Of a stretch of 64,000 nt of DNA, positions 31,148 through 51,192 are shown piece after piece. Made by a program: the position numbers and the translations under genes. Position 1 is the first letter of the stretch; each line of letters opens with the position of its first letter. Source of the DNA: Promethearchaeota archaeon (GTDB lineage: Archaea > Asgardarchaeota > Lokiarchaeia > Sigyniarchaeales > SOKP01); NCBI GenBank assembly GCA_019057865.1, contig JAHLWP010000006.1, positions 32,001 to 96,000 on the forward strand, in the 5' to 3' direction. Under the pieces are notes generated by a model, which saw only the letters and a program-made list of their open reading frames with translations, did not search any database and was not told the origin of the DNA.

Positions 31148-31221
31148 TGGGCCAGGAGAGACTTGAACTCCCGACCTTCGCGGTGTAAACGCGACGTCAT
31201 ACCAAACTAGACCACTGGCCC
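31148..31221 (-). tRNA. tRNA-Val(TAC), no intron
   Basis: GGGCCAG acceptor, anticodon arm TCGCG-TT-TAC-AC-CGCGA, GTTCAAGTC T-loop. Confidence 0.95.
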
Positions 31222-31232
31222 TATATTTTAAA

Positions 31233-31336
31233 CGCTCAGGGTGGGATTCGAACCCACGAGTCCGTTCGGACACCGGTTTAGCAGACCGGCGCTAATGGCA
31301 CAATTATATTGTTCTACCAGGCTAAGCGACCTGAGC
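31233..31336 (-). tRNA. tRNA-Ser(GCT) with a 20-nt non-canonical D-arm intron (31294-31313)
   Basis: GCTCAGG acceptor, CCGGT-CT-GCT-AA-ACCGG, long variable arm. Removing AACAATATAATTGTGCCATT restores GCT-TAGCCTGGTAG-AGC. Confidence 0.92.
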
Positions 31337-31452
31337 GCAATTTTTTCAATAGTAAAGAGTATTACATTTTGAATATAACAATTCAAAATTTTAATACTTT
31401 TTCATACAATTATTCTACTAAAGCATTAGTAAAATAAGAAACTGAATGCAAA

Positions 31453-32733: not shown

Positions 32734-32835
32734 GCACCTGTAGCCTAGTTGGTAAGACGCCGGCCTTGAGTATTTGAAGCATTCAAGTAAGCCGGTGCGC
32801 GTAAGCGCTCGGGGGTTCGAGTCCCTCCAGGTGCG
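32734..32835 (+). tRNA. tRNA-Ser(TGA) with 19-nt intron at 37/38 (32771-32789)
   Basis: GCACCTG/CAGGTGC acceptor, CCGGC-CT-TGA-G[intron]A-GCCGG, CTTG/CAAG central helix, long variable arm. Confidence 0.9.
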
Positions 32836-32855: not shown

Positions 32856-32957
32856 GGGCTATTGGCGCAGGCAGGTAGCGCAACCGGCTCTTAAGCGGGA
32901 ATTATAAGTTCTGCAGAAGAAACCGGCAGGTCGGGGGTTCAAATCCCTCATAGCCCG
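32856..32957 (+). tRNA. tRNA-Lys(CTT) with ~28-nt intron at 37/38 (32894-32921)
   Basis: GGGCTAT/ATAGCCC acceptor, GCGC D-stem, CCGG-CT-CTT-A[intron]A-CCGG, GTTCAAATC. Confidence 0.88.
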
Positions 32958-48770: not shown

Positions 48771-49489
48771 GGGATTTTATTTTAAAAATGATAAATATTG
48801 AAATTCGAAATCATCCAAAATTTTATAATGTCTATATATCAGGACCTCAAGAAAACTTAAAACTCTATACTAAAAATTTAACTTTAGGGAATAGAGTGTA
48901 TGGGGAGCGATTAATTAATTATAAGGGGATTGAATACCGAGAATGGGATCCCTTTAGGAGTAAGCTAGCAGCTATATTATTAGAAAATCCTATTACTAGC
49001 TTTTTAAATAGAAACTTAAAATGTTTGTATTTAGGAGCATCATCAGGAACAACAATTTCTCATCTTTCAGATATTGTTCATGACGGAATAATTTATGGCA
49101 TAGAATTTGCGGAACGAAGTATGAGGCAACTAATTCAAAATACGTCTAAAAGAGCAAATATTGTACCGATATTAGGAGATGCTCGGTATCCAGAAACTTA
49201 CTCAAATTCAATATTTACCGATATAGATTTAATTTATCAAGATGTTTCTCAACCAAATCAAGCTGAGATTGCTATTATTAATTCAAATTATTATTTAAAT
49301 GATGAAGGTACAATCATAGTAGCTATAAAATCTCAATCAATAGATAGTATTACTAAATCAGAAAAAATTTATAAACATGAGAGAGATATTTTTGAAAAAT
49401 CTGGTTATAAGATAATAGAAAGTATAAATATTCATAGATACGCTGCTAATCACATAGTTTTAATAGTGAAGAAAAAGGGAATTAGTTAA
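48767..49489 (+). CDS. flpA: Fibrillarin-like rRNA 2'-O-methyltransferase (start possibly 48788)
   Basis: VYGE, REWDPFRSKLAA, LYLGASSGTT, YQDVSQPNQA. Confidence 0.96.
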   Translation: MRDFILKMINIEIRNHPKFYNVYISGPQENLKLYTKNLTLGNRVYGERLINYKGIEYREWDPFRSKLAAILLENPITSFLNRNLKCLYLGASSGTTISHLSDIVHDGIIYGIEFAERSMRQLIQNTSKRANIVPILGDARYPETYSNSIFTDIDLIYQDVSQPNQAEIAIINSNYYLNDEGTIIVAIKSQSIDSITKSEKIYKHERDIFEKSGYKIIESINIHRYAANHIVLIVKKKGIS

Positions 49490-50210
49490 AATATTCAGTA
49501 ATTTTTCTATTCTCTACTTCTTCATTTAAGATTTTTTTTGTTGTAACCCATGATTTCCTAGCAAACTGAGGGGGTTTTTTATTTTTTTTTATCCAATCTC
49601 TGAGGAAAGTTGTCGTTTTTATATCAGAAGGATAACCAGAGCCAAAATCACCAAACTTTTCTTTCAATTCTTCTATTAAATTATCTCTTATATCTTTTGC
49701 AATTATTGAACTTGCCGAAACTATAGGATAGGTATCATCAGCTTTATGTTTAGAAATAATTTGTCTTGGCATATATTCCAATAACATTCTAATTGATTCT
49801 CCGAATCTTTCTTCATTGACATCCGCAGCATCGATATATATACTATCTGGTTTTAACTCATTTATAATCTCAGCAATTTTTAATTCTTCTAGTCTGTTAA
49901 TAGATATTTTCCTCTCTTCTCTCTGATCGATCTCCTTAGCATTAATTACTATAACTTTATAAGAATGACAATTATCTTTTATTGCTTTAGTTAATTCACT
50001 TCTTCTTTTAGTGGATAATTTTTTAGAATCCTTAACACCAATTTTAGATAAAAAATCTAATTTTGACCTATTAAAACAAACACCACATAAAACCATTGGA
50101 CCTAAGACGGGCCCTTTTCGCATATAATTCGAATTGGACTATATTCTACCAGCCTCGTCTATTCCACAAACTATATCTAATTCTTCATTATGATTCTTGG
50201 ATGAGTTCAA
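49482..50210 (-). CDS. rnhB: Ribonuclease HII interrupted by a 30-nt insert; spliced CDS join(50210-50146,50115-49482), 232 aa
   Basis: TTG start after GAGG. Exon 1 MNSSKNHNEELDIVCGIDEAGR; exon 2 GPVLGPM..GVKDSKKL..IDAAD..HKADD..SASSIIAK..GSGYPSD; PIP-like NRKITEYF. Confidence 0.9.
50116..50145 (-). other. Candidate bulge-helix-bulge mRNA intron in rnhB
   Basis: AATATAGTCCAATTCGAATTATATGCGAAA contains an in-frame TAG (50139-50141) and an AUAUAG/UUAUAU hairpin; removal restores DEAGRGP. Confidence 0.8.
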
Positions 50211-51192
50211 TGAATTCCTCTTCATCATCAATTTCTTCTAAATTTTTAATTCTAACAATAGGAATTTTATTTTTTAAAAAAGTATCTGGGATTTTAATGT
50301 TGTTATTTACTATGAAGAGCGCAATTTTATGAAATAAGTCGGTAAACATTTTTAAGCATTTAGGATTTAACTGTTTAATCTTGTTTTGATCTTCACTAAT
50401 TCCTGAAAAAAGAGGATAAAAACCTTCTATTTTAGACTTGTCAGTTTTGGAATATAATGATAATTTGAAGGGTATTGAGCCTCTTTTATACCAATAGGAG
50501 GAAATCCCAATATCTTTGAATATTGATTGAACATGAGATTCAAAATCACTTAATTCGCTCTCCTCCATAAAATCACTTTGATCTATTTCGTATTTGAATT
50601 TCCAGTCAAAAATATTGATTTTTTTAAAAATTTCACTATCTTCTAAAATGTTTTTAATGTTTTCAGCTACTTTTTCAGAAGGATGCATACTTTCATTTTC
50701 ATAAGCACATACGGTTCTTTTTGTAACTCCAAGTTTTTCTGATAATTCTTTTCTCGTTATTGATTGCTTTTCTCGTAAGGTTTTCATCACATTGCCATTT
50801 ACAAATACTATCCCTCCCCCTCTCTTAGCAAGTATATAAGGATATATATTTTCATCTAAGATCTTTTCTAAAGTATTAAAAGTTATAAATGGCAATCCAT
50901 TCCTAATATAAATAGTATCATCTTCTAATTTTTGATATCGATTCCTAATTCCAATTAATAACGGTTTTGATTTTAGTATTATGGATAAAGATTTAATATC
51001 ATTAATTATATCTGGGGTTATATTATCAATATTCGGAAAAATTTTTAAGCTAAAAATTAAATCATTCTTTTTAACTAATATATCAAAACAAAATTTGTTT
51101 TTTTTTGAGGAAAAATTGTCTAAAGCAAATGTTTCGAACTTTGCCTTCCTTAATAAAATATTAATTTTCTGAAGAATCTGATCAATCATCAA
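50188..51192 (-). CDS. Archaeal HTH-type regulator (COG1395-like)
   Basis: FDILVK..LK...NID, LEDDTIYIRNG, AKRGG, Cro-type HTH LSEKLGVTKRTVCAYE. Confidence 0.85.
   Translation of the reverse strand: MMIDQILQKINILLRKAKFETFALDNFSSKKNKFCFDILVKKNDLIFSLKIFPNIDNITPDIINDIKSLSIILKSKPLLIGIRNRYQKLEDDTIYIRNGLPFITFNTLEKILDENIYPYILAKRGGGIVFVNGNVMKTLREKQSITRKELSEKLGVTKRTVCAYENESMHPSEKVAENIKNILEDSEIFKKINIFDWKFKYEIDQSDFMEESELSDFESHVQSIFKDIGISSYWYKRGSIPFKLSLYSKTDKSKIEGFYPLFSGISEDQNKIKQLNPKCLKMFTDLFHKIALFIVNNNIKIPDTFLKNKIPIVRIKNLEEIDDEEEFIELIQES

Follow-up and report, generated by a model that had tools for sequence, protein, structure and literature searches.

The tRNA-Ser(GCU) gene of a Loki-type Asgard archaeon (Promethearchaeota) is interrupted in its D-arm by 20 nt, and the exon letters leading into the insert nearly repeat those in front of a 30-nt insert in rnhB, the gene for RNase HII. 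Is the tRNA insert a genuine intron, and does the likeness between the two sites reflect common origin, a preferred site or coincidence? The DNA analysed, referred to here as the window, is a stretch of 64,000 nt (G000:C75:32001-96000) with a G+C content of 29%. Its source genome, G000, comprises 4.26 Mb in 87 contigs and is 99.7% complete.

The tRNA-Ser(GCU) gene lies on the minus strand at 31233..31336, is 104 nt long with its intron and encodes a class II tRNA with a long variable arm, as identified by the Rfam tRNA model RF00005 and, on the spliced form, by ARAGORN. The minus strand reads GCUCAGG UC GCUU AGCC UGGU AGA ACAA UAUAA UUGU GCCA UUA GCG CCGGU CUGCUAA ACCGG, followed by the long variable arm and the T-arm; the D-arm string given in an earlier note on this DNA, GCC-UGGU-AG^A-ACAA(UAUAA)UUGU-GCCA-UU^A-GC, matches it exactly. 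The 5' exon (31314..31336, minus strand; tRNA positions 1-22) contributes the 5' strands of the acceptor stem and D-stem and the D-loop, and ends in ...AGCCUGGUAG. The 20-nt intron, AACAAUAUAAUUGUGCCAUU, sits at position 22/23 (31294..31313, minus strand), with a boundary that can be shifted by one base because an A flanks both cuts. The 3' exon (31233..31293, minus strand; positions 23-73) supplies the D-stem strand AGC, the anticodon arm with GCU, the variable arm, the T-arm and the 3' strand of the acceptor stem. RF00005 aligns to 31336..31233 (minus strand) with 48.9 bits, treating 26 nt of the D-loop as an insertion. With its intron in place the gene escapes ARAGORN, which calls only the intronless neighbour there, tRNA-Val(UAC) (31148..31221, minus strand). 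Once the 20 nt (31313..31294) are deleted, the remaining 84 nt fold into a cloverleaf recognized by ARAGORN as tRNA-Ser(gct), with a D-stem of four pairs (G10-C25, C11-G24, U12-A23 and U13.G22), in agreement with the earlier claim that removal restores the D-arm. About 40-80 nt upstream, nearly all relatives share a conserved A+T-rich block, ATATTAAAATTTTGAAT(C/T)GTTATATTGAAA (about 31375-31410 of the window, minus strand), which is probably the promoter of the gene (TATA/BRE region).

The insert folds with its exons into a BHB motif. The exon strand UGGU (U17a G18 G19 U20; 31316..31319, minus strand) pairs with the intron strand GCCA (31296..31299, minus strand) in a 4-bp central helix of U-A, G-C, G-C and U.G, with 3-nt bulges on opposite strands (5' AG^A and 3' UU^A) and an inner helix of 5 bp within the intron (ACAAU/AUUGU) that closes a 3-nt loop. 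Of the 3,075 ways of placing an insert in the gene by position and length, two combine a 4-bp central helix with an inner helix of at least 4 bp, and both are this same intron, one of them register-shifted. In the MFE fold of the whole precursor, the acceptor, anticodon, variable and T-arms all form, and the insert makes a separate hairpin on the D-stem (z = -4.2). Beside the 3' bulge, the outer helix consists of 1 bp (C17-G); the next pair is C-C, and the D-stem GCU/AGC closes the motif beyond a 5-nt gap. The strict canonical hBHBh' form has an outer exon-exon helix h of at least 2 bp next to the 3' bulge, and by this measure the tRNA-Ser intron falls outside it: the motif is of the relaxed (HBh') type. 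With an outer helix of only 1 bp, splicing would therefore need an EndA of broad specificity. The 4-bp central helix, the two 3-nt bulges, the inner helix h', the restored cloverleaf and the existence of intronless orthologues are what the relaxed definition of a BHB intron comprises, and they support the reading of the insert as a real, non-canonical D-arm (22/23) BHB tRNA intron.

The splicing enzymes of the host are consistent with a substrate of this kind. Two genes carry both EndA domains. The first (G000 C71:81560-82159, L001 1171-1770; 200 aa) is EndA alpha, in which the catalytic Tyr, His and Lys are kept; its best PDB match is the catalytic alpha subunit of A. pernix (3p1z_B, E = 3e-35), in an alignment that spans the Crenarchaea-specific loop region (NKPR vs EKPR). 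The second (C69:38262-38882, L002 1189-1809; 207 aa) is the EndA beta paralogue, in which the catalytic His is replaced by Asp (...EKDSAKF... vs ...DKEHSVY...), and it fits a structural beta subunit, as would be expected. RtcB ligase is encoded by one gene. Host EndA can thereby be classified, from its genes, as the (alpha-beta)2 type with a crenarchaeal-type specificity loop, the loop region lying in alpha and the catalytic His missing from beta. Asgard archaea have been described as possessing (alpha-beta)2 EndA with the L1 loop, which has been linked to the cleavage of relaxed motifs (Kaneta et al., 2018, PMC5829648). The proposal that the host enzyme accepts relaxed substrates agrees with the EndA genes, the loop and that study, and the substrate range itself stands as a prediction.

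From the sequence, the fold, the comparison with relatives and the enzyme genes, all directly observed, we infer cutting and joining as follows. The 4-bp central helix of the precursor would arise from pairing of the D-loop bases UGGU with GCCA, which lies close to the 3' end of the intron, and the intron hairpin ACAAU/AUUGU would stack on one side of this helix. Both scissile bonds would be exposed in 3-nt bulges, one AG^A and the other UU^A, and each strand would be cut by the (alpha-beta)2 endonuclease 3' of the second bulge base. Ligation of G22 to A23 by RtcB would then allow the D-stem to form.

The tRNA-Ser(GCU) locus was read in 41 genomes of the same genus, across which the Ser-Val tRNA pair is syntenic, with GGGCCA after tRNA-Ser in the relatives. 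In 36 of the 41 the insert is absent and the exons are alike (...AGCCUGGUAG|AGCGCC...). The 5' exon is identical in the intronless orthologues that have the GCUCAGG acceptor stem, and the D-arm (positions 8-22) is identical in nearly all the others. A 22/23 insert is present in the remaining five: G000 and G056, which form a nearly identical pair, G012, G063 and G068. The G012 intron, AACGCUGGAAGCGUACCGAA, is likewise 20 nt long and occupies the same site with a different sequence. Its inner helix is wholly replaced (ACGCU/AGCGU, 5 bp), and in its central helix (UGGU/ACCG) the U.G and U-A end pairs are swapped with all four pairs kept. UGGU is thus partnered by ACCG in G012 and by GCCA in the other four intron-bearing genes, with four pairs formed in every case. 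The inner helix measures 5 bp in G000, G056 and G012 and 2 bp in G063 and G068, making the motif relaxed in some members. By RNase HII identity, the closest relatives of the source genome are G012 (94%), G056 (91%) and G063 (84%), all others reaching at most 73%. Since the intron is shared with these three, its gain is shallow: it would be an acquisition, inside the genus, of the lineage that comprises G000, G012, G056 and G063. G068 also has the intron, which may reflect the same gain or a separate one.

Other parts of the gene vary in the genus as well. In other species, tRNA-Ser(GCU) contains an intron of about 49 nt between positions 7 and 8 (L005, L154, L161, L019, L021) or an intron in the T-loop after GGTTCGAA (L019, L020, L021, L167, L170, L172); with position 22/23 included, the gene therefore has at least three intron sites, which differ among lineages. 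Two versions of the acceptor stem occur, GCUCAGG/CCUGAGC and GCAAUCG/CGAUUGC, as a comparison of L004 and L153 with L003 and L155 shows; the stem strands lie at 31336..31330 and 31240..31234 in the window. G000 and G056 have one version and their close kin G012 and G063 the other, and all four carry the 22/23 intron. The acceptor-stem version does not follow relatedness, which suggests recombination or conversion within the tRNA-Ser(GCU) gene.

Position 22/23 is among the known non-canonical positions of tRNA introns (reviewed in PMC4090602). Like the archaeal non-canonical BHB tRNA introns described so far (Marck and Grosjean, 2003; Sugahara, 2008; reviewed in PMC4090602), the tRNA-Ser intron is short, lies outside the anticodon loop, forms a 4-bp central helix between exon and intron with two 3-nt bulges, restores the cloverleaf on removal and resides in a host with (alpha-beta)2 EndA and a specificity loop. 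Unlike them, it has an outer helix of 1 bp and occurs in a mesophile-like Asgard (Promethearchaeota) host of 29% G+C rather than in a crenarchaeon. A preprint of October 2026 (10.64898/2026.10.13.758758), in the passages available, describes D-arm inserts as common in Asgard tRNAs, with a median length of 22-23 nt and repeated gains, often missed by tRNAscan-SE and located where BHB motifs can form, D-arm sites being frequent. The tRNA-Ser intron resembles these inserts in its place in the D-arm, its length of about 20 nt, its invisibility to standard finders and its gain on a shallow branch. That study centres on the Freyr-, Jordi- and Atabeyarchaeaceae, the passages available leave the present genus unnamed, and mRNAs fall outside the scope of the work.

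Many other tRNA genes of the source genome carry D-arm or other non-canonical inserts. Brute-force deletion combined with ARAGORN was tried for all tRNA introns; D-arm introns were finally placed by hand and with Rfam, because ARAGORN accepts too many false solutions. tRNA-Val(CAC) (G000:C31:69174-69275, minus strand; L173:75-176, L181), of which Rfam aligns only the 3' two-thirds, has a 30-nt D-arm insert at 22/23 (UGGU AU^A ... GCCA AA^G) that is conserved in G056, G012 and G055 and measures 25 nt in G022. In G003, G006 and G009, position 22/23 of tRNA-Val(GAC) is occupied by an insert of 31 nt. Mutually unrelated 22/23 inserts are thus found in three tRNA species of the genus, Ser(GCU), Val(CAC) and Val(GAC). 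Two further interrupted tRNA genes lie in the window. The gene at 32734-32835 (plus strand), called tRNA-Thr(tgt) by ARAGORN in intron mode, is in fact tRNA-Ser(UGA) with an intron at the canonical position, as its long variable arm and its loop, CU-UGA-G, indicate; 32856-32957 holds tRNA-Lys(CUU), whose intron measures about 29 nt.

The site to be compared lies in rnhB (49482..50231, minus strand; exon 1 about 50231..50146, exon 2 50115..49482), the single RNase HII gene of the genome. Its 30-nt intron (50116..50145, minus strand) contains an in-frame TAG and falls between GIDEAGR and GPVLGPM in the context GAG GCU GGU AG^A AUAUAG...GCGA AA^A GGG; removal restores GIDEAGR-GPVLGPM. The intron occurs in 33 distinct sequences of the genus, always at 30 nt, and is precisely absent from G063, L066, L070 and every one of the 16 loci that could be read in two sister families. 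On the ungapped alignment, 92.4% of cells are paired under the BHB model, against at most 42% in slid controls; both partners vary in nine of the 14 pairs, and none of 500 shuffles reaches the observed values. Compensation is seen as exon CGGG with intron CCCG (L073), as UGGG with CCUA (L071) and as a change from AAUUC/GAAUU to AAUCC/GGAUU (L048). Judged by this covariation, the rnhB insert is a real, conserved BHB-like mRNA mini-intron, and it is more novel than the tRNA-Ser intron. RNAalifold, applied to the same alignment, favours an exon-exon outer helix and, of the hairpin, only its core, a solution set aside on pair counts, by which the specified BHB model is far better. The rnhB intron resembles the cbf5 pre-mRNA BHB intron of Crenarchaeota (PMC2738675) in being short, placed within the coding sequence and gained or lost among close relatives. 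It differs in gene and in phylum, and the likeness concerns rnhB rather than the tRNA-Ser intron.

Two features of rnhB deserve separate mention. The Glu codon GAG (50156-50158; column 8 of alignment A1), rare at a usage of 21%, is kept in 32 of 33 intron-bearing genes, whereas all three intronless genes of the genus and most sister-family genes have GAA instead. Such retention agrees with a constraint on synonymous sites from an exon-exon outer helix (GACGAGGC with GGCUCUGUC). The rnhB gene of G063 (L034/L063) falls within the intron-bearing clade at 84% identity, yet is precisely intronless, and all four codons at its old junction are synonymously changed (GAA GCA GGA CGU). The state of the G063 gene points to precise loss of the intron or replacement by an intronless allele.

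The likeness between the two sites is close. tRNA-Ser and rnhB share the identical 9-nt stretch CUGGUAGAA in the same register to the 5' cut, as the earlier note had observed in calling the 5' contexts nearly identical. Without their introns, the target sites (GCCUGGUAGAGCGCC and GGCUGGUAGAGGGCC) agree at 13 of 15 positions. The central-helix partners also read as the note had them, GCCA in tRNA-Ser and GCGA in rnhB, the rnhB helix containing one G.G mismatch; they are alike because both strands must pair with UGGU. On the tRNA side, AGCCUGGUAGAGC is simply the ordinary D-arm of tRNA-Ser(GCU), identical or nearly so in almost all intronless orthologues. On the rnhB side, Ala-Gly-Arg is written with two common codons and the commonest Arg codon (usage in 2,027 long ORFs: GCU 0.43, GGU 0.34, AGA 0.55). 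The spelling GCUGGUAGA has an expected probability of 0.08 and was observed in 6 of 86 cases, and an intronless rnhB of a sister family (L147) reads GCU GGU AGA too.

CUGGUAG has a frequency of 2e-5 per position. Depending on the null model, the a priori chance of the tRNA-Ser/rnhB likeness is roughly estimated at 1-8%; for any 7-nt flank match, the estimate, equally rough, is about 1-3% when 10-20 mRNA introns and some tens of tRNA introns are assumed, both numbers being guesses. It is uncertain whether the two sites are more alike than chance would make them. The 9-nt identity in the same cut register is nominally unusual, and a coincidence of this size is not trivial. Most likely, the likeness is nevertheless a coincidence of two independently constrained exon sequences, with the intron strand forced by pairing. 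Counted against coincidence is the sharing of position 22/23 by unrelated introns in tRNA-Val(CAC) and tRNA-Val(GAC), which hints at a site preference.

Three other accounts have to be weighed. It is scarcely credible that the 20 nt stay in, whether in a decaying pseudogene or in a tRNA working with an enlarged D-loop. ARAGORN does not recognize the unspliced gene and excision is a prediction from the DNA, as retention would allow, but tRNA-Ser(GCU) has a single match in the genome and is the tRNA required for AGY codons; with the genome 99.7% complete, this gene must therefore yield a functional tRNA. Its exons are intact and the same as those of intronless orthologues, the BHB fold is preserved by compensating changes in a sister species, and comparable inserts occur in many other tRNA genes of the genome. 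A common origin concerns the likeness instead: a BHB intron would have moved, in either direction, between tRNA position 22/23 and the Ala-Gly-Arg codons of rnhB, steered by the near-identical target CUGGUAG|AG in reverse splicing or in transposition at the DNA level. The 13 of 15 identical target positions, the same cut register and the 5' bulge AGA in both introns speak for such a move, as might the 22/23 intron of tRNA-Val(CAC), which has UGGU/GCCA and the 30-nt length of the rnhB intron and aligns with it marginally (p 0.02-0.18, within ten comparisons in all). That alignment was set aside as evidence, its marginal p failing correction for ten comparisons. The timing is unfavourable: the rnhB intron is far older, being present in 33 distinct sequences across the genus, while the tRNA-Ser intron is confined to one subclade and one other genome (5 of 41), so this tRNA-Ser intron cannot be the donor. 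G063, moreover, has the tRNA-Ser intron and lacks the rnhB intron. Aligned globally with three tRNA-Ser introns, the rnhB intron (its own sequence and the consensus) scores no better than shuffled controls in which the helix strand and the bulge are left unchanged (p 0.42-0.85). No extra copies turned up either. In the source genome, blastn-short searches for a second copy of either intron gave significant self matches only. Across 54 genomes of the genus, the rnhB core pattern TAATTCNNNTCGAATTW occurs at the rnhB loci and about 27 other places (8 for the reversed control), and none of ten such places read lies in a tRNA or BHB context. The Thermoproteales families of transposed introns (Fujishima et al., 2010), as summarized in PMC4090602, share the idea of one intron at different BHB-compatible sites. 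They are defined there by high intron identity, whereas the rnhB and tRNA-Ser introns are no more alike than shuffled sequences; neither an intron identity of at least 70-80% nor compatible timing of donor and recipient was found for this pair. A common origin is accordingly very improbable. The earlier proposal that an intron of this class entered rnhB by reverse splicing or transposition finds no backing in timing, alignment or copy searches; every test of shared ancestry was negative, and common descent behind the likeness of the splice sites is unsupported.

A convergent preference, the third account, dispenses with shared ancestry: UGGU followed by A-purine would favour the arising or the retention of BHB introns, for example through G.U/U-A closing pairs or a purine-rich bulge favoured by EndA, in D-loops and in one mRNA of like lettering. 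This is rather unlikely, though less improbable than a common origin. tRNA-Ser(GCU) and tRNA-Val(CAC) have independent, dissimilar inserts at 22/23, both on a UGGU strand; tRNA-Val(GAC) in G003, G006 and G009 is interrupted at the same position; the AG^A bulge recurs in a candidate intron in an acyl-CoA-synthetase-like mRNA; and the available passages of the preprint (10.64898/2026.10.13.758758) place introns where a BHB can form, frequently in the D-arm. The tRNA cases are not independent evidence, however. G18 and G19 are universal in tRNA, so any 22/23 intron must use UGGU. The genome has 991 TGGTAG sites, and a whole-genome BHB search anchored at TGGTAG^ found 140 pairings, taken as about chance level without a shuffled control. 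Beyond tRNA-Ser, the one credible intron among them is that of rnhB, 12 of the 13 other ORF-joining matches having been judged by junction peptide alone. Other mRNA candidates use the unrelated helices UCCU, CGGC, GUGG and GUGU. It follows from these unrelated exon strands that D-loop mimicry is not a requirement, and nothing tested favours the suggestion that the Ala-Gly-Arg codons of rnhB mimic a tRNA D-loop. A more specific form of the preference, in which BHB mini-introns of the genus land or persist preferentially at CUGGUAG|AG and the 22/23 tRNA introns and the rnhB intron arise from one insertion process directed by exon context, is distinctly improbable; if true, it would mean that such insertion can cross from tRNA genes into protein genes. 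An ordinary 22/23 BHB intron whose likeness to the rnhB site is most likely coincidental remains, as a joint reading, the probable one.

The mRNA candidates come from a genome-wide, ORF-joining BHB scan with 39,269 hits, of which 1,362 loci pass strict rules. These are mostly junctions of neighbouring genes, so the scan serves for recovering known cases and a few top candidates and not for statistics. The candidate strands are UCCU-CA^A (alpha/beta hydrolase), CGGC-AG^A (acyl-CoA-synthetase-like), GUGG-AA^U (zinc alcohol-dehydrogenase-like) and GUGU-AU^A, and the positions listed for candidate mini-introns, all on the minus strand, are G000:C82 near 580, C60 near 11344, C23 near 141098 and C41 near 215615. 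The acyl-CoA-synthetase-like candidate is 32 nt long with the junction EGDVWYCTAD|IGWITGHSY, and the zinc alcohol-dehydrogenase-like one is 29 nt long (...KRCGICGSDVH...). Further candidates interrupt a Cys-rich protein (30 nt) and a P-loop protein (38 nt, ...TGCGKTT...).

The way in which BHB introns come to occupy new sites, with a possible passage from tRNA to mRNA, is an important question for the mRNA mini-introns of this archaeon, to which the present pair of sites gives no answer. Standard tRNA finders miss genes of this kind, and the only tRNA-Ser(GCU) gene of the genome goes unseen by ARAGORN. The tRNA-Ser intron adds a further well-documented D-arm case in the Asgard archaea, backed by orthologues that lack it and by compensating changes in a single sister species.
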